From a virus (lineage: Duplodnaviria; Caudoviricetes): a stretch of 27,173 bases of DNA. Location: positions 1-27,173 of the IMG/VR virus record IMGVR_UViG_3300044453_000070; one strand, written 5' to 3'. Under the pieces are notes generated by a model. That model made no database searches. It was not told the DNA's origin and saw only the letters and a program-made list of their open reading frames with translations. Positions within the stretch are counted from its first letter, which is position 1. Every line of letters starts with the position of its first letter. This document shows positions 3,109-26,385 of this stretch, in pieces. Position numbers and translations under genes: made by a program.

Positions 3109-3283
3109 CTGCGGCCTCCAGTGCGGTCCACCGCCAGTACTTATTGCAGTGGCCCCAGCGCCGAACCTCGCAGATCGAGCCTTCCGGGCCTGTGTAAACA
3201 TACCGGCCTTCTTCTCGTTCGCACGCGGTCACAGGCAAAAGCATGGCGGCTGCCAGGATTGCTCTTGTCAGCTTGCCCATCAC
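3095..3283 (-). CDS. small putative lipoprotein
   Basis: MMGKLTRAILAAAMLLPVTA-C: basic N-region, hydrophobic stretch, lipobox-like VTAC. Confidence 0.6.
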   Translation of the reverse strand: MMGKLTRAILAAAMLLPVTACEREEGRYVYTGPEGSICEVRRWGHCNKYWRWTALEAADDHG

Positions 3284-3831
3284 GCGCCTCCCTTGATGGC
3301 GGCGCGGGCGTTGCGGAAATCGCCATGGTTTGCAAACGCGCCATGTAAGATAGTTCGATGCCGAGAAACGACATCAGCGGCATCATCAATGCTATCAAAC
3401 AGCCCCAAGTGGCGTTGCTTATTGTTGTGCGTTATGTACGCAACCCATTTGCCGGTGGCCTTGTGCCAACCGACACCCTTCACACCCGACTTGTTGTCTT
3501 TCCTAAGCCGATGGTTGCGGGTGTTTTCTTGATGAGTCGACAATCGAAGGTTTGCTATTCTATTGTCTGCCCGGTCTCCGTTTACGTGATCGATCTGCAT
3601 GCCGGGTGGAGGCATGGAGCCATACGTAAAAAGCCACGCTACGTGGTGCGCGCGGTATCTGGTCGAGCCAACCCAAAGAAAAACATACCCGTTGCCGGCT
3701 TCCGAGGCGGCAACGCCGCTTTTCCGCCGACCTGGTCCTCCATCTCTGGTCCAGTGGAACAAACCACTTCCAGCGTCGTATCGGAGGTCCAATCGTAGCT
3801 TGGCCAGCAATTTTCTATCTGTGTCTTTCAT
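3280..3831 (-). CDS. HNH endonuclease with AP2-like C-terminal domain
   Basis: YRAHHVAW..IDHVNGDRADNRIANLR and SGVKGVGW..KWVAYI..HLGLF; ATG at 3831. Confidence 0.9.
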   Translation of the reverse strand: MKDTDRKLLAKLRLDLRYDAGSGLFHWTRDGGPGRRKSGVAASEAGNGYVFLWVGSTRYRAHHVAWLFTYGSMPPPGMQIDHVNGDRADNRIANLRLSTHQENTRNHRLRKDNKSGVKGVGWHKATGKWVAYITHNNKQRHLGLFDSIDDAADVVSRHRTILHGAFANHGDFRNARAAIKGGA

Positions 3832-3832
3832 C

Positions 3833-4207
3833 TCAATTGCCCAGAGTCGTCTTAGCAATGCGCTTGTTGCGCTGTGGGTCCAAAGCGTTTTCAATGTCAT
3901 CGCTGTCGGCGATATTGCTCAGGGCCGCCTTCAACCGATCGATCTCTTCCATCGCCTCATCCCGTTCCGCCACAAGGGCGGCGAAAGTGGCGGGGTCGAT
4001 CAGTTTGTAGCCGCCCGCAAAACCGTGCTCCGATCCGTACTCCAATGCTGAGACGAAATAGTCTGCGGCCTTCTCTCTTTGCCCGCATCCGATCCCGCTT
4101 CGAGGGCAAAACCCCGCCTCATCGGCGCAGTCGCGACAACGCCCGCCGTACTTGACCAGAAAATCAATCAGCGCGTCTCTCGCCGGCTTCATCTCAATCT
4201 CGTTCAT
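3833..4207 (-). CDS. hypothetical phage protein
   Basis: MNEIEMKPARD.., CRDC..C..C cluster and coiled-coil tail; fits operon packing. Confidence 0.6.
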   Translation of the reverse strand: MNEIEMKPARDALIDFLVKYGGRCRDCADEAGFCPRSGIGCGQREKAADYFVSALEYGSEHGFAGGYKLIDPATFAALVAERDEAMEEIDRLKAALSNIADSDDIENALDPQRNKRIAKTTLGN

Positions 4208-14540: not shown

Positions 14541-14987
14541 ATGCATGACGATGACTACGACGGATCGGCGGGGCCGTTCCATCCTGTGTTTGTGTTTGGC
14601 GGCGCGCTGGCGCTTGGGCTCGTGCTGGTTATGGGCTTGCTTGCGTTCTGGTTCACCATAGTGTCGCCGGCTGCGGCGCATGACGCCAAGCCGACAAGGC
14701 AGCAGCCTCTTGGTTGGACGTACCCGAGCAGGAGCTGCTGGTCTGCATCGAACGCGCCAGCCGGCCGTCTTGGTGACTGTGCTGATATCCCCAATCACGC
14801 CGTGAAGGTCGGTCCAGACGGCTACGTGGTGACGCTGGAACCCGGCGAACACCCAATGGTCACGGAGCGAATTTCATACGTCATACCCTACGCGGAGGCA
14901 GAGCAGTCTCCAGATGGCCGCTACCATCTTTGCATCAGTTCGACGTTGAAGCGGCGGTGCTTCTTCGCAGGCGCGAGGATGGGATGA
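14541..14987 (+). CDS. membrane-anchored or exported Cys-containing protein
   Basis: TM helix then AAAHDA..GWTYP..C..SPDGRYHLC..RCFF. Confidence 0.7.
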   Translation: MHDDDYDGSAGPFHPVFVFGGALALGLVLVMGLLAFWFTIVSPAAAHDAKPTRQQPLGWTYPSRSCWSASNAPAGRLGDCADIPNHAVKVGPDGYVVTLEPGEHPMVTERISYVIPYAEAEQSPDGRYHLCISSTLKRRCFFAGARMG

Positions 14988-15514
14988 TGCAGCAGTGCAG
15001 AGACAGGCGAGGCGACCGCTTCGGTTCGCTGGTGGCCTTCGAGGCAACGCATAGGGTGCTGTCGAGCGGGCGCAGGATGCCGGCATGGAAGCTCCGATGC
15101 GATTGCGGGAATACCGTCGTCGCCATGACGGTGAACCTGACGAAGGGAAAGCATCAGTCGTGCGGGTGCCAGAAGGCGAAACTCAACGCTTTGGCGAAGC
15201 CGGGCGACACGAAGAATCCAGAGTATCGCGTCTATCGCCAGATGCTGAATCGGTGCTCGTTGCCGACCGCGCCGAACTACCGCTACTACGGCGGCAAGGG
15301 CGTCGATGTCTGCGCAAGGTGGCGCTTTGGCGCCGAAGGGAAGACGGGGTTCCAGACGTTCTTGGCAGATATGGGGCCGCGCCCTGACGGCCTGACGCTG
15401 GATAGGATTGACCCGTTCGGAGATTACAAGCCGGATAATTGCCGATGGGCAACTTGGGCGACGCAATCGACCAACCGGCGCAAGAGCGCTCACAAGCCCG
15501 ATGCGGGGTTCTGA
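14984..15514 (+). CDS. HNH-type homing endonuclease-like protein
   Basis: RCDCG..SCGC..YYGGKGVDVCARW..FLADMGPRP..TLDRID..DYKPDNCRWAT. Confidence 0.85.
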   Translation: MMQQCRDRRGDRFGSLVAFEATHRVLSSGRRMPAWKLRCDCGNTVVAMTVNLTKGKHQSCGCQKAKLNALAKPGDTKNPEYRVYRQMLNRCSLPTAPNYRYYGGKGVDVCARWRFGAEGKTGFQTFLADMGPRPDGLTLDRIDPFGDYKPDNCRWATWATQSTNRRKSAHKPDAGF

Positions 15515-21671: not shown

Positions 21672-22256
21672 TTACGGCCTGTGTTTGCGTAGCGTGTCAT
21701 TGATCCTCGCCTGCCATCCAGGGCCAGTAGCGCGGAATGCTTCGATGATGTCGGGGTCTAGGCCAACAGACTCGACAACGCTTATAGCATCGGTCCCCTT
21801 GCCCATGTTGCAGTCGCTGCAAAGGGTTATGAGGTTGCTGATGTCGTCTGAGCCGCCACGCGAAACGGGCAGCATGTGGTCGATGTGCAGCACGACCTTG
21901 TGTTCGTCGGCATTGCGACCGCACATCTGACACCTGTAGTCGTCGCGCGAGAAGACATTGAACCGTGTCTTCAGCGAGATAGATCGGGCTTGCTGCTGCC
22001 CGGACGCCACTCTATGGCTTTTGACGCGGCACCGGTCCGAACAAAACTTGGCGTGCCAAGCGCCATAGAACGCGCTGCCGCACCACGCACATTGATGCTC
22101 GTAAGCGCCGCTTGAACGGAGTTTGGCGGCCTCCTCGACGGGCAAGCAAAGCGATGGCGTCTGGACATCGTTGACCAACTTGGCAGGCTTGTTCTTGCAG
22201 GACCGGCCGCACCATCGCCACGAATTACAGACGCCACACTTGTTAAGAAGGTCCAT
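21672..22256 (-). CDS. HNH endonuclease with BrnA-antitoxin-like C-terminal motif
   Basis: RFNVFSRDDYRCQMCG..LHIDHMLPVSRGG..NL..LC..CN..KG then LDPDIIEAFRATGPGWQARINDTLR. Confidence 0.85.
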   Translation of the reverse strand: MDLLNKCGVCNSWRWCGRSCKNKPAKLVNDVQTPSLCLPVEEAAKLRSSGAYEHQCAWCGSAFYGAWHAKFCSDRCRVKSHRVASGQQQARSISLKTRFNVFSRDDYRCQMCGRNADEHKVVLHIDHMLPVSRGGSDDISNLITLCSDCNMGKGTDAISVVESVGLDPDIIEAFRATGPGWQARINDTLRKHRP

Positions 22257-22350: not shown

Positions 22351-24123
22351 GTGGAAGTTCACGATAATCCCGAACGCCTGAGCCTATTCGAGGGCCTGTC
22401 TGAGGCCGACATCGGCCGCATGACCCGCGACCAAGTCGCCCGCATGCTGGGCATCCTTGAGGCGCAGAAGAAGCGCGAAGGGCAACGGCTGTTCTGGCGC
22501 TACTTCCCGGACAAGGACACATCGTATCCGGGCGGCGTGATGTTCCACGCTCGCGAGAAGTACGCAAAGCATCTGGAGTTCTTCCGGGTCGGCGCTACGT
22601 TCCGCGAACGCTGCTTCATGGCGGCCAATCGCTGCATCACTCCGTGGACATGGCTTCAAACGCCGGCCGGTGAGGCCCTGAGCGCAGAAGTTTGGACTTC
22701 GGAAGATGCGACTGTTCTGGCGTGGGACGGTGAAGCAGAACGAACCGCTCAAGCGCAGCACGGAATTCTGAAGTGCATTGAGCCAGCGTTTCGTCTGGTG
22801 ATGGGCAGCGGTCGATTCTTTGACTGCACCCGTAAGCACCGGGTATTGTCGAACGAGGGGTGGCTTTCGCTCGACCAGATAGTGTCTCGTGCAAGTGGTC
22901 TGCGTTTGTGGCATAGACGCGAAGATTATCAGGCCAATTGTGTCGCGGGTGGCTATCTCGGTGGTCAACCACTTCGGTCGCTCGGAGGTATCGACCTAGC
23001 GTCACTTCGGCCACAAGGCGATGCTCAAGGACGCGCCCCGTTGATTTTCGCGCTTCCGGATGAAGCGGAGCAAACACTTCGACATATCCGTGCTTGTCAA
23101 GGACGCGACCGCCTTTCCAGCCAGGATGATCTGTACCGCTTCGCGGCCCTGTTCGCGATGTTTGCAGGTGCGTCGAGCGCGCAATCCTGTCTATCGCTGA
23201 GCGAGTGCACCCGAGACGTTCTGCGGTTTGTTCAAGCGTCAGTCGCTCAACTTCGACAAGATGGCGAACGGTATCGCGATCAATCCGACGCCTATGATCG
23301 CCTCGCTTCTGCCCTGAAGGGATGCCTCGGCGGATCATGTACGCGGACAGGGACGGATGCGATACGCCGATCTGGCGCGCTATGTCATGACGTCCAAGAC
23401 CTTGGCGGCTCAGTTCAAGAATGGTTTGATGGTGAGGGTCGCATAGCGATCTTTTACCCATACGGCCATGTTCCTTTGGTCGGCGGTGAGCACATAGCGG
23501 CAATCGTACCACTCGGTTTGCAGCCAATAATAGACGCAACCGTTCCGGAACACCAGAACTATAAGGCCGCTGGCGTCTACCACCACAACACTGGCAAGAC
23601 CGTAGCCGGCGCTTACGAGACGAGTTGCCATCTGACGGGGCTTTACCCGGATTGGTGGGAAGGTCGACGGTTTGACCGCCCCATCAGGGCATGGGCGGCC
23701 GGCAAGACCAACGAGACGACACGCGACATCGTGCAGGGCTCGCTGATGGGCGAGGTACAGCCTGGCGTCGCCCGCAAGGGGTTTACGGGCACAGGCCTCG
23801 TTCCCGGCGCATTGATCAAACAGGATTCGGTCGCATGGAAGCAGGGCGTTGCCGACCTGTGCGACACGGTGAAGGTGAAGCATGCTTCGGGCGGCTGGTC
23901 CCAGCTTGGCTTCAAAAGCTATCAGCAGGGGCGCGGTTCATTCGAGGGCACGGCGCAGCACGTCATTTGGCTTGATGAGGAGCCGCCGCTGGACGTTTAC
24001 GGCGAGTGCCTTATCCGCACCGCGACCACAAAGGGCATCATCCTCCTGACGTTCACGCCGCTTGAGGGCATGTCGGAAACCGTCATGCAGTTCATGCCGC
24101 AAGAGCACAAGACCGATGCCTGA
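22351..24123 (+). CDS. terL: terminase large subunit, N-terminal (ATPase) part, intein-containing; 271 aa after splicing
   Basis: Walker A MAANR|TGKT split by intein; FKSYQQGRGSFEG; Walker B IWLDEE; TFTPLEG. Confidence 0.93.
   Translation: MEVHDNPERLSLFEGLSEADIGRMTRDQVARMLGILEAQKKREGQRLFWRYFPDKDTSYPGGVMFHAREKYAKHLEFFRVGATFRERCFMAANRCITPWTWLQTPAGEALSAEVWTSEDATVLAWDGEAERTAQAQHGILKCIEPAFRLVMGSGRFFDCTRKHRVLSNEGWLSLDQIVSRASGLRLWHRREDYQANCVAGGYLGGQPLRSLGGIDLASLRPQGDAQGRAPLIFALPDEAEQTLRHIRACQGRDRLSSQDDLYRFAALFAMFAGASSAQSCLSLSECTRDVLRFVQASVAQLRQDGERYRDQSDAYDRLASALKGCLGGSCTRTGTDAIRRSGALCHDVQDLGGSVQEWFDGEGRIAIFYPYGHVPLVGGEHIAAIVPLGLQPIIDATVPEHQNYKAAGVYHHNTGKTVAGAYETSCHLTGLYPDWWEGRRFDRPIRAWAAGKTNETTRDIVQGSLMGEVQPGVARKGFTGTGLVPGALIKQDSVAWKQGVADLCDTVKVKHASGGWSQLGFKSYQQGRGSFEGTAQHVIWLDEEPPLDVYGECLIRTATTKGIILLTFTPLEGMSETVMQFMPQEHKTDA
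22633..23589 (+). mobile_element. intein 1 (319 aa) in TerL Walker A
   Basis: Block A CITPWT, block B CTRKHRVL, block F/G IIDATVPEHQNYKAAGVYHHN, +1 Thr. Confidence 0.92.
22637..23461 (-). CDS. HTH-HTH-HNH endonuclease encoded antisense inside intein 1 (274 aa)
   Basis: AAAGGA-N10-ATG; IARQIGVS and TAERLGC HTHs; HPGWKGG..GYV..GRVLEHRLVAE..LGR.L...EVVDHRD....NWPDNL. Confidence 0.88.
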   Translation of the reverse strand: MGKRSLCDPHHQTILELSRQGLGRHDIARQIGVSHPSLSAYMIRRGIPSGQKRGDHRRRIDRDTVRHLVEVERLTLEQTAERLGCTRSAIDRIARSTHLQTSRTGPRSGTDHPGWKGGRVLDKHGYVEVFAPLHPEARKSTGRVLEHRLVAEVTLGRYLRATEVVDHRDSHPRHNWPDNLRVYATNADHLHETLSGRAKATPRSTIPGAYGCSQRIDRCPSPDETLAQCTSEFRAALERFVLLHRPTPEQSHLPKSKLLRSGPHRPAFEAMSTE

Positions 24124-24691
24124 GAATAAGGTGACGCTATCGCGCGAGTGCTGGCACCGCGCCGACCGGCAGAAGAGGTGCGTGCGCTGCGGCGAGACGA
24201 AGCGTCTTGCGGATTTCTATTCGTATGGTTACGTCACGAACCAAGGGAAGCCAAGCACCAGGTATGAAAGCCGGTGCATCGACTGCAGTAAGGCTAGGAT
24301 GGCGGAGCAAAGGAAGGCGAAACCGCATCTCGTGGTTGAGCAGAACCGCCGAAGGTACGACCGCAATCCCAATTGGTCTCGTGAGCAGTCCAAGCGGTAT
24401 AGAAACACGGAGCATGGCCGTCTCAAGAAGGCTCTTTTGCAGCGCCAGCGAAAGGCGAGAATGCGCAGCAAGTCCGGCGACAATGCCGCTATTAAGGCAG
24501 TCTACGCATTGGCAATGGAGATAGAGCGTATCGTCGCTCAGTGCCCGGTGTTCGATATTCCGGAACTCGGCAAGAAGATGCACGTCGATCACATCATGCC
24601 CCTGTCGCGCGGCGGTCTGCATGAGGTTGAGAATCTGCAAATTCTGCCAATCGGGCTCAATATGCGAAAGGGCGCGTCGTGCCCGAGATAA
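24116..24691 (+). CDS. free-standing HNH endonuclease between the terL halves (191 aa)
   Basis: CVRC..CIDC zinc ribbon; MHVDHIMPLSRGGLHEVENLQILP...NMRKG; overlaps both terL ORFs. Confidence 0.9.
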   Translation: MPENKVTLSRECWHRADRQKRCVRCGETKRLADFYSYGYVTNQGKPSTRYESRCIDCSKARMAEQRKAKPHLVVEQNRRRYDRNPNWSREQSKRYRNTEHGRLKKALLQRQRKARMRSKSGDNAAIKAVYALAMEIERIVAQCPVFDIPELGKKMHVDHIMPLSRGGLHEVENLQILPIGLNMRKGASCPR

Positions 24692-26385
24692 CCTCGTCTC
24701 GGTACCTTGTCACGGCGGGCTGGAGCAATGTCCCGCACCTAGACGAGGACACCAAGCGCGAGCTGCTGAACTCGACGCCGCCGCACCTTCGGGATGCGCG
24801 CACCAAGGGCATCCCTTCGCTCGGTTCCGGTGCGATCTACCCGGTTGCATGGGAGGAAGTCGAGTGTAGGCCGTTCGCTATCCCGGCTTATTGGCCGAAG
24901 GCGTATGCGCTCGACGTGGGCTGGAACAAGACCGCTGCCCTGTGGGGCGCGAAAGACCCGTCCGATGGCGTGCTGTACATCTACGCCGAGCACTATCGAG
25001 GGCAGGAGTTGCCGCCGGTCCACGCCGAGGCGATCAAGGTTCGCGGGGCTTGGATCAAGGGCGCGATTGACCCTGCCGCTCGTGGCCGTGCCCAGCGCGA
25101 CGGCGAGCAACTGATGAGCCAGTATGTGTCGCTCGGGCTGAAGCTGACGCCAGCGAACAACGCGGTCGAGTCTGGCCTGTACGAGATATGGAAACTGCTT
25201 TCCATCGGGCGCATCCGGTTCTTTTCGACGCTGCAGAACACGAAGGCTGAGTATCGCATGTATCGCCGTGATGAGCGCGGCCGGGTGGTGAAAGAGTTCG
25301 ATCACCTGATGGATTGCTTCGTCGCCGACACGCCGGTTCACACCAGTGATGGCATTAAGCGAATTGGCGATATGGTAGGAACAACCGGTCTTGTGAGAAC
25401 GGTCGGCGGCGTGTTTGCTCCTTACCATTCCTGCCAAAAGTATGGCAGCGATCGGCAGGTGGTGACGCTGACATTCTCCGATGGCTCAGAGGTAACCTGT
25501 ACTCCTGATCATAGGTTCATGTCGGGCGGCAAATGGGTCCAAGCGATTGATATGGCAGGGCGCTTGTGCGATACTGCGGTATCGAATAGCGCAGGCTTTA
25601 GCAAATGCCGGTCACGGTCATCTCTGGAACCATTCAGGAATACAAAGGCGAGCGGTACTACCTCTGCGGCAAGTACTTCCAACGCGCGGGGCTGCGCCTT
25701 CACGTCGCTGTTTGGAAGGATGCGAATGGCTGTGATGTCCCAGATGGGCATCACGTCCATCACAAGGACCACGACAGGGCCAACAACCAGCCATGGAACC
25801 TGGAAGCGAAGCCTAAAGGGCTGCATATCTCCGATCACCAGCGCGGGCATGGGCGCGGCATTTCTAGCAATGCACTTGCCGCTGCGGCTGAATGGCATAG
25901 CTCGCCGAGCGGTGCGGAATGGCATCGAAGCCACTATGAGGCAACCAAGCATTTTCTGCATGAACCCGCAGATTTCGTTTGCGAGCATTGTGCCAAGCCG
26001 TTCACGAGCACAGCGAGGGGGCATGCTCGATTTTGCTCGAACAACTGCAAAACCAAGGCACGGAAACTTACTGGAGTTGACGACGAAAGCCGCTCCTGCG
26101 TCCGGTGTGGCTCATCGTTCATTGTCAACCGGTACTCGCGAACCGTCACTTGTAGCCGAAAGTGCGCAGGTGCGGTGTCTGGCGATAAGAGACGCCGGCC
26201 GCGCTGACGTTTACTGTCTGACCGTCCCAAGCACATCAGCTTTCGCCGTAGGCGAGGCAGGCATCATCGCGCACAATTGCCTACGCTACCTCGTCATGAC
26301 GTGGGACCAGATCGCAGCGGTACAGGCCCCGGAGCGCAGCCGCGCGACCGTCAACGCAATCTCTGACATGTACGCAGGTTACTGA
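24679..26385 (+). CDS. terL: terminase large subunit, C-terminal (lid + RNase H-like nuclease) part, intein-containing; 247 aa after splicing
   Basis: GAAAGGG before GTG; AGWSNVPHL..ARTKGIP; YALDVGW, IDPAA, DHLMD|CLRY. Confidence 0.92.
   Translation: MPEITSSRYLVTAGWSNVPHLDEDTKRELLNSTPPHLRDARTKGIPSLGSGAIYPVAWEEVECRPFAIPAYWPKAYALDVGWNKTAALWGAKDPSDGVLYIYAEHYRGQELPPVHAEAIKVRGAWIKGAIDPAARGRAQRDGEQLMSQYVSLGLKLTPANNAVESGLYEIWKLLSIGRIRFFSTLQNTKAEYRMYRRDERGRVVKEFDHLMDCFVADTPVHTSDGIKRIGDMVGTTGLVRTVGGVFAPYHSCQKYGSDRQVVTLTFSDGSEVTCTPDHRFMSGGKWVQAIDMAGRLCDTAVSNSAGFSKCRSRSSLEPFRNTKASGTTSAASTSNARGCAFTSLFGRMRMAVMSQMGITSITRTTTGPTTSHGTWKRSLKGCISPITSAGMGAAFLAMHLPLRLNGIARRAVRNGIEATMRQPSIFCMNPQISFASIVPSRSRAQRGGMLDFARTTAKPRHGNLLELTTKAAPASGVAHRSLSTGTREPSLVAESAQVRCLAIRDAGRADVYCLTVPSTSAFAVGEAGIIAHNCLRYLVMTWDQIAAVQAPERSRATVNAISDMYAGY
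25547..25575 (+). promoter_or_regulatory. candidate internal promoter for the nested HNH gene
   Basis: TTGATA N17 GATACT with extended -10 TG, ending 30 nt before ATG 25605. Confidence 0.6.
25605..26207 (+). CDS. HNH endonuclease in a shifted frame inside intein 2 (200 aa)
   Basis: RLHVAVW....DVPDGHHVHHKDHDRANNQPWNL; C-terminal CEHC..FCSNNC and CVRC..TCSRKC zinc ribbons. Confidence 0.9.
   Translation: MPVTVISGTIQEYKGERYYLCGKYFQRAGLRLHVAVWKDANGCDVPDGHHVHHKDHDRANNQPWNLEAKPKGLHISDHQRGHGRGISSNALAAAAEWHSSPSGAEWHRSHYEATKHFLHEPADFVCEHCAKPFTSTARGHARFCSNNCKTKARKLTGVDDESRSCVRCGSSFIVNRYSRTVTCSRKCAGAVSGDKRRRPR

Follow-up and report, generated by a model that had tools for sequence, protein, structure and literature searches.

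Inteins carrying an anti-sense homing endonuclease of the LAGLIDADG or VSR-like type have been published (Gosselin, Arsenault, Gogarten, bioRxiv 10.1101/2025.01.02.630785, citing Gorbalenya 1998), in a report whose main text does not use the words promoter or conversion. The available part of a second preprint describes selection on a hidden, out-of-frame LAGLIDADG within a cyanobacterial DnaX intein (bioRxiv 10.64898/2026.09.14.751524), and HNH nucleases with the ShiLan domain, hidden on the same strand within mycobacteriophage methylases, are described as homing in the accessible sections of Arsenault et al. (PMC11855218). According to the portions available of each source, I-PfoP3I, in a class related to the I-HmuI type, nicks 4 nt from the insertion site (PMC3428280), the empty alleles of the haloarchaeal MCM-d intein mostly lack a +1 nucleophile, which is co-converted on invasion (PMC10643990), and nuclease ends overlap split-intein halves by 6–69 bp (Dassa et al., PMC2677866). 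Neither an antisense HNH nuclease within an intein nor a selected overlap on a splicing domain was found in the literature searched, which took in few subscription journals and left the supplements of both bioRxiv preprints outside.

The window, that is, the whole stretch of DNA analysed here, is a 27,173-base virus record (IMG/VR IMGVR_UViG_3300044453_000070), about 34% complete, whose gene content (integrase, an anti-repressor-like protein, small terminase subunit and several HNH genes) is likely that of a temperate tailed phage. Its large terminase is split over two ORFs, an ATPase half at 22351–24123 (+; Terminase_6N, E = 3e-12) and a nuclease half at 24679–26385, with one intein in each. 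The ATPase-half ORF has 590 aa counted from the first GTG, and its true start may lie downstream. The split itself appears to be common: among 79 relatives the terminase was fused in 4, split with a short gap in 27, split with a gap of at least 150 nt in 27 (a class resting on a rough motif call) and unclear in 21. Here the halves are separated by an HNH/endonuclease VII-like gene (24116–24691, +) that overlaps each by a few bases and has the look of a fractured gene. At least six HNH-type genes lie within the 27 kb, including those at 3280–3900 and 14930–15514; an HNH gene at 21672–22256 (−), divergent from the terminase, has a last 30 residues that match the BrnA antitoxin family above its cut-off. 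The 321-aa intein 2 (25315–26277, +; C...HN|C), in the nuclease half, contains a hidden ORF on the same strand but in a different frame (25605–26207, +), which encodes a second HNH with zinc-ribbon motifs (Pfam HNH_3, E = 8e-10). Both frames are open, and a relative is found beneath the terL annotation of Tetrasphaera phage TJE1.

Intein 1 (22633–23589, +) interrupts the Walker A motif of the terminase. Its frame of 319 aa contains no stop, starts with CITPW, ends with HHN and is flanked by AANR and by T-G-K-T, the +1 Thr and the G-K-T of Walker A occupying 23590–23601. Splicing residues of the class 1 type are in place (Cys1, block B His69, block F Asp301 and His318-Asn319), and all of these were invariant in 40/40 related inteins (selected as given below), with Ser (17), Cys (13) or Thr (10) at +1. 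A sense-frame profile built from the 40 matched solved DnaB and RecA inteins (best E = 2e-17, to DnaB), and these matches were confined to the splicing stretches, positions 1–86 and 277–313; Pfam Intein_splicing was matched by 13/40 members, intein 1 not among them. The N-terminal splicing region (blocks A–B, about residues 1–86) spans 22633–22890 and the C-terminal one (blocks F–G) 23470–23589. The in-frame insertion is absent from 79/79 of the nearest other terminases, in which AANR is joined straight to V/I-GK. From its residues and its open frame within an essential gene, this class 1 intein is predicted to splice. A canonical intein with an in-frame HNH was considered and rejected, as the nuclease domain is absent from the intein's own frame, for which Pfam, PHROGs and NCBIfam yielded no match to a nuclease.

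The nuclease lies on the other strand. A first-pass annotation made from the letters of the window had claimed that intein 1 hides, wholly within its boundaries, an antisense HTH-HTH-HNH gene, and the profile check of both frames bore this out, with an HNH match in the antisense frame only. The gene (22637–23461, −) encodes 274 aa, contains the HNH motifs quoted in that annotation, and ends at a TGA (22637–22639) 4 nt within the 5′ end of the intein. Its product matched PHROGs HNH families with E values of 3e-20, 4e-20 and 4e-17 and exceeded the cut-offs of Pfam HTH_31 and HTH_23, whereas Pfam HNH_3 (E = 6e-4, 19.8 bits) stayed under its cut-off of 24.8. By these family matches the protein is of the HNH and HTH type only, and not LAGLIDADG or VSR-like. 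Helix-turn-helix 1 (residues 8–45; 23327–23440, −) and helix-turn-helix 2 (residues 62–96; 23174–23278, −), both seen by Pfam and in the predicted fold, precede the HNH core (residues 109–197; 22871–23137, −), in which N179 and H189 were invariant and H167 was kept in at least 90% of 118 sequences. A C-terminal tail (residues 198–274; 22640–22870, −) then runs over intein blocks A–B. The first HTH domain is missing from some relatives, among them the long-tail members L011, L035, L036, L038, L072 and L093, and one HTH therefore seems sufficient.

The structure of the antisense protein was modelled from the 118 sequences (pLDDT 89, pTM 0.65). The model contains two three-helix domains, the HNH core and a helical tail, the blocks of the tail having pLDDT values of 81–97 up to residue 270. 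The HNH core aligned to I-HmuI (1u3e, residues 23–105) over 80 residues with 25% identity, an rmsd of 3.6 and a middling Z of 5.0; I-HmuI is a nicking enzyme. Against a viral structure library the model gave 21 matches at E ≤ 0.001 (best about 1e-8), the named ones being mostly HNH. Foldseek against the PDB gave no match at E ≤ 0.001, I-HmuI appearing at E = 0.99; a PDB sequence search with the protein returned HTH proteins only, and the match list of a wide structural search was likewise dominated by HTH domains.

A protein search with the antisense protein found 390 database relatives, the best 120 of which are nearly all 260–280 aa long. Loci L001–L093 reduce to 59 distinct matches, and in 58 of these an ORF on the opposite strand spans the match, in one phase throughout. 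A frameshift or sequencing error, which the first-pass annotation had already held unable to explain the orientation, was accordingly rejected as the source of the antisense ORF, which is on the opposite strand and in the same phase in 58 loci. The remaining locus (L046) is the sole free-standing nuclease among the 59 and ends soon after the HNH. Both intein ends could be called in 45/58 loci, and 40 remained after dropping those more than 90% identical (L089, whose intein start was mis-called, was excluded before counting). Long forms, in which the antisense stop falls in intein nt 1–30 or slightly outside the intein (mostly at nt 5 or 20), account for 32 of the 40, and short forms, with the stop at intein nt 134–197, for the other 8. 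These relatives are related by descent, so that counts across them are not independent trials.

The search that started from the intein yielded 33 loci: 32 belong to the antisense-HNH intein family and 1 is unrelated. Of the 32, 20 were on contigs already in the set; among the other 12, which were inspected, 11 keep the HNH (one cut by the contig end). One locus, L206:1501–2244, is a decayed member whose antisense nuclease has lost segments in frame and is interrupted by a stop, while the sense frame stays open. Hosts of antisense-HNH inteins are mostly terminases; judged by their motifs, the hosts of L048 and L051 presumably resemble a clamp loader and SbcC, the insertion again being at Walker A. 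Inteins L003 and L059 are about 83% identical over their first 630 nt and 99–100% identical over their last 270 nt, a step that may be a sign of recombination inside the intein. A separate locus, L207:760–3009, encodes an actin-like phage protein with an intein whose in-frame HNH was labelled by eye.

The two frames constrain each other, since in the family's phase the wobble position of either frame coincides with the second codon position of the other. Selection on each frame was measured as third-base identity at four-fold sites across the 32 relatives, given here as sense/antisense. Outside the overlap, wobble sites are near saturation: the N-extein gave 0.30/0.63 and the C-extein 0.33/0.77, and the C-splicing block, which as protein is single-coded, gave 0.36/0.82. 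The relation reverses over the HNH core (0.76/0.40) and the HTH part (0.74/0.38), while over the tail both values are high (0.61/0.63). These identities imply that the antisense frame rules the HTH and HNH parts, the sense frame the C-splicing block, and both frames the tail. The middle of the intein over HTH and HNH is thus an unselected, stop-free linker in the sense frame, in keeping with the earlier description of it as an open shadow of the antisense gene. Synonymous recoding with the antisense protein held fixed predicted about 175 sense-frame stops over the 40 relatives and 0 were seen; these relatives had been chosen with an open sense frame, yet 58/59 of the antisense-side loci have one.

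Over blocks A–B, the 70-codon tail is under selection in both frames, which upholds the claim that it is double-coded with the splicing blocks. Antisense stops were found in 1/2204 tail codons and 0/6012 codons of the HNH and HTH parts of the 32 relatives, against 69/1370 in the C-splicing block and 115/3049 in the exteins. Conserved intein residues (R54, G60, D64, C65, H69 and G76) are interleaved with conserved residues of the tail. The main alternative at this point is that the nuclease gene is real and the tail is no protein domain, its read-through being kept open and conserved because the 5′ part of the intein is constrained as DNA or RNA. The eight relatives with stops at nt 134–197, which contain 1–5 antisense stops over intein codons 8–80, and the free-standing nuclease that ends soon after its HNH favour such a view and show that the tail is not required by all; moreover, no relatives of the tail were found among proteins of 30–149 aa, and there was no usable Atlas match. 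Nevertheless, we consider this alternative unlikely. Stops are avoided in exactly the antisense frame; recoding of codons 8–80 predicts 0.9–3.5 antisense stops per sequence whereas 30/32 long forms have zero; single tail residues (G, H, L, T, P) are held at 88–100% pairwise identity where the intein residue varies; and the predicted structure is of high confidence.

Of the two overlapping layers the tail is likely the newer, because the N-splicing region shares homology with DnaB inteins and a tail of this kind is lacking in the free-standing relative. A tree of the HNH core placed 31 long-tail rows on one side with a support of only 46, so that a single origin of the long tail is not established.

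The codons of the C-terminal splicing region likely carry the promoter and the ribosome site of the antisense gene. The start ATG is conserved (as M-G followed by K or R), its complement coding for intein F-Y-P, with CCA in 29/32 relatives. A Shine-Dalgarno-like AAGGA lies 10 nt before the ATG (23472–23476, −), and matches of at least 4 bases were found in 23/32 relatives, compared with a mean of 7.2 and a maximum of 15 after recoding. The hexamer TATTAT on the Ile299-Ile300 codons (23527–23532, −) is a possible −10 element. TATAAT-like hexamers scoring at least 5 are present in 30/32 relatives (recoded mean 16.2, maximum 24) and alternate between two sites, Ile288-289 and Ile299-300. Use of ATA for Ile in columns 289, 299 and 300 was 12/13, 19/29 and 13/15, as against 7/41 in three neighbouring Ile columns and 17/112 in the exteins. 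The promoter is regarded as a lead, because no match to a −35 box was found for the antisense gene and a consensus promoter scan of the window's copy gave no minus-strand promoter.

Comparison of the relatives points to continued horizontal spread, with recent homing visible. Inteins L007 and L056 differ at 4/954 nt, while the first five 30-nt windows of their flanks are 63–93% identical. Likewise, inteins L019 and L060 differ at 1/954 nt, with an identical tract continuing about 47 nt downstream and mostly 67–93% identity thereafter. Between intein-bearing genes and close empty ones, the differences concentrate at the junction: L020, which has Cys at +1, differs from the empty L291, which has Leu, by 7 mismatches in the first 21 nt and 22 in the next 1179, and, over the empty L290, L291, L293 and L294, by 7 in the first 21 nt and 22–52 in the next 1179. 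L004 and the empty L225 show 5 mismatches in the first 21 nt followed by 29–30 of 30 identical bases for 11 windows, and L003 differs from the empty L210 mainly around the junction. The conversion tracts thus delimited extend from roughly −10 to at least +18 and, in L020 and L003, include a change of Leu or Val to Cys at +1. None of the recent-invasion pairs found involves the window's own copy. Ordinary phage recombination, or a different nuclease working in trans, could also have left such tracts; the phage has several HNH genes.

The first-pass annotation had further proposed that the nuclease targets the intein-free Walker A sequence, with the codons of AANR joined to those of TGKT. Conversion tracts with the junction at their centre favour this site, though indirectly. 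The sequence did not hold: the nearest other terminases (73 loci with 56 distinct sites, and 6 more) have Val or Ile at +1 in 79/79, so that joining 22632 to 23590 does not reproduce the natural allele common in the clade. With these residues in empty alleles, invasion likely imports the Cys, Ser or Thr at +1. Distinct empty sites around L020 have Cys, Ser or Thr at +1 in 0/56 cases and those around L003 in 8/54 (L249, which resembles the end of another intein, was excluded from the empty-site count). L101, a close terminase, has Val at +1 and a different intein three codons on, after G-K, which starts with Ala and has an apparent in-frame LAGLIDADG, labelled by eye. HNH and C-extein identities correlate (Spearman 0.71 over 703 pairs), and much of the history is for this reason attributed to shared descent or to spread among close kin. 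An extein tree needed only 2 label changes, but this quick tree had long branches, drew its empty alleles all from around the window's terminase and was given no weight.

We conclude that intein 1 is very probably a mobile intein in the ATP-binding loop of the terminase, homing by means of a separately expressed antisense HNH nuclease. The terminase would be translated through the intein, with the middle as an unselected stop-free linker, and the intein would splice out using Cys1, His69, His318-Asn319 and the +1 Thr. The nuclease would be made from its own antisense RNA, starting within the C-terminal splicing codons, with its own Shine-Dalgarno sequence and ATG. During co-infection, or when a prophage is resident, it would bind the intein-free Walker A DNA and nick or cut it near the insertion point. 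Repair from the intein-bearing gene would then copy the intein together with about 10–40 flanking bases, exchanging the recipient's Val, Ile or Leu at +1 for the Cys, Ser or Thr needed by splicing. In the likely history, a free-standing HTH-HNH gene entered an intein backwards, and in the long-tail clade the nuclease frame later grew over blocks A–B and came under selection.

Two other accounts of what the nuclease does were weighed against homing to the empty host site. The HNH gene might be a parasite of the intein itself, targeting intein DNA in a mini-intein allele, as its probable entry as a free-standing gene (L046; model in Gosselin et al., 10.1101/2025.01.02.630785) could suggest; this is highly improbable, given that no mini-inteins of the antisense-HNH family occurred among the 33 intein-side loci, that whole inteins move and that conversion tracts lie in the exteins. 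We give still less credence to the idea that the phage has co-opted the protein to help packaging or to regulate transcription and that homing has been lost. HNH genes beside terminases can aid packaging, according to the accessible sections of PMC11855218, and the antisense protein has two HTH domains, but the intein is absent from the 79 nearest terminases, near-identical phages differ by its presence, relatives occupy other ATPases and L206 has decayed. That the antisense ORF merely mirrors the sense gene by chance has a negligible probability: GC-rich phage DNA is rich in long shadow ORFs (132 of at least 80 aa in this window), but the profile matches at E of 1e-20, the 390 relatives with their near-uniform length among the best 120 and a codon-position conservation that tracks the antisense frame refute it.

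Cultured phages carry similar arrangements. No GenBank phage covered 80% of the antisense query, but an intein with an HTH-HNH ORF on its antisense strand occurs in the terminase of eight Pectobacterium/Dickeya phages (the Ymer group) and of the marine Pseudoalteromonas phage PHS3; in Ymer this ORF ends at intein nt 41. Their long tail is a different one (L369:41–2167 and 1300–2019; L174:1319–2182); the antisense tails of Ymer and PHS3 are similar by eye, and that of Ymer showed no similarity to the tail of the window's clade (probability 0.1%), which suggests a second overprinting. GenBank annotation at these loci is one-stranded, the long ORF of Ymer being ‘hypothetical’ and PHS3 being given an HNH and a cut-down terminase, and the main text of the Ymer paper does not use the words intein or HNH (PMC11445585). 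A common phage intein type has thus been overlooked by annotation.

We give roughly even odds to a bolder reading, in which overprinting of the catalytic half of its carrier intein provided the nuclease with a new folded domain, at least twice (in this clade and in the Ymer/PHS3 lineage), so that two parasites share DNA that is read in both directions and neither can be lost or swapped alone, the C-terminal codons of the intein serving as the nuclease's promoter and ribosome-binding site. The family offers a large natural series for the stepwise growth of an antisense overlap, from free-standing nuclease through short antisense form to the long form over the catalytic domain, and de novo birth of a domain by overprinting becomes testable through silent changes in either frame. 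Moreover, invasion by the intein here would rewrite a Walker A residue of the host, and the arrangement leads one to ask how a late packaging gene tolerates head-on transcription within it.

Set against the systems described, the antisense-HNH inteins are closest to those of Gosselin et al., with which they share a contiguous intein, a nuclease encoded as a separate ORF on the other strand, a sense frame that is open without a fold, terminases among the hosts and signs of continued invasion; the nuclease here is an HNH, whereas HNH nucleases are listed there only in frame. With the DnaX intein, as far as the available part of that preprint extends (10.64898/2026.09.14.751524), they share selection on the hidden frame, a lowering of synonymous change in the host frame by the overlap and a proposed secondary invasion, but the DnaX nuclease is a LAGLIDADG in a +2 ORF, its host is bacterial and mini-inteins are common, while none was seen here. 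The ShiLan HNH, weakly related to the antisense protein (35–37% over residues 76–218, E about 1e-6), also lies in another frame under a host frame that is kept open; in the accessible text (PMC11855218) it differs in being on the same strand, without a splicing domain and with zinc fingers instead of two HTH domains. The core resembles phage HNH homing endonucleases of the I-HmuI type in its alignment to 1u3e, but those are intron-encoded, whereas the antisense protein has two HTH domains N-terminal to the core and a new tail C-terminal to it. As with the MCM-d intein, the +1 nucleophile would have to come by co-conversion; in the portion of that paper available (PMC10643990) MCM-d is canonical and co-conversion is rare, whereas most of the empty alleles sampled here would need it. 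The antisense-HNH inteins thus work like the published anti-sense-nuclease inteins and differ in membership only by nuclease class. Beyond what has been published, they add a selected double coding of the splicing domain, C-terminal splicing codons that likely also hold a promoter and ribosome site, and direct snapshots of invasion with replacement of the +1 residue.
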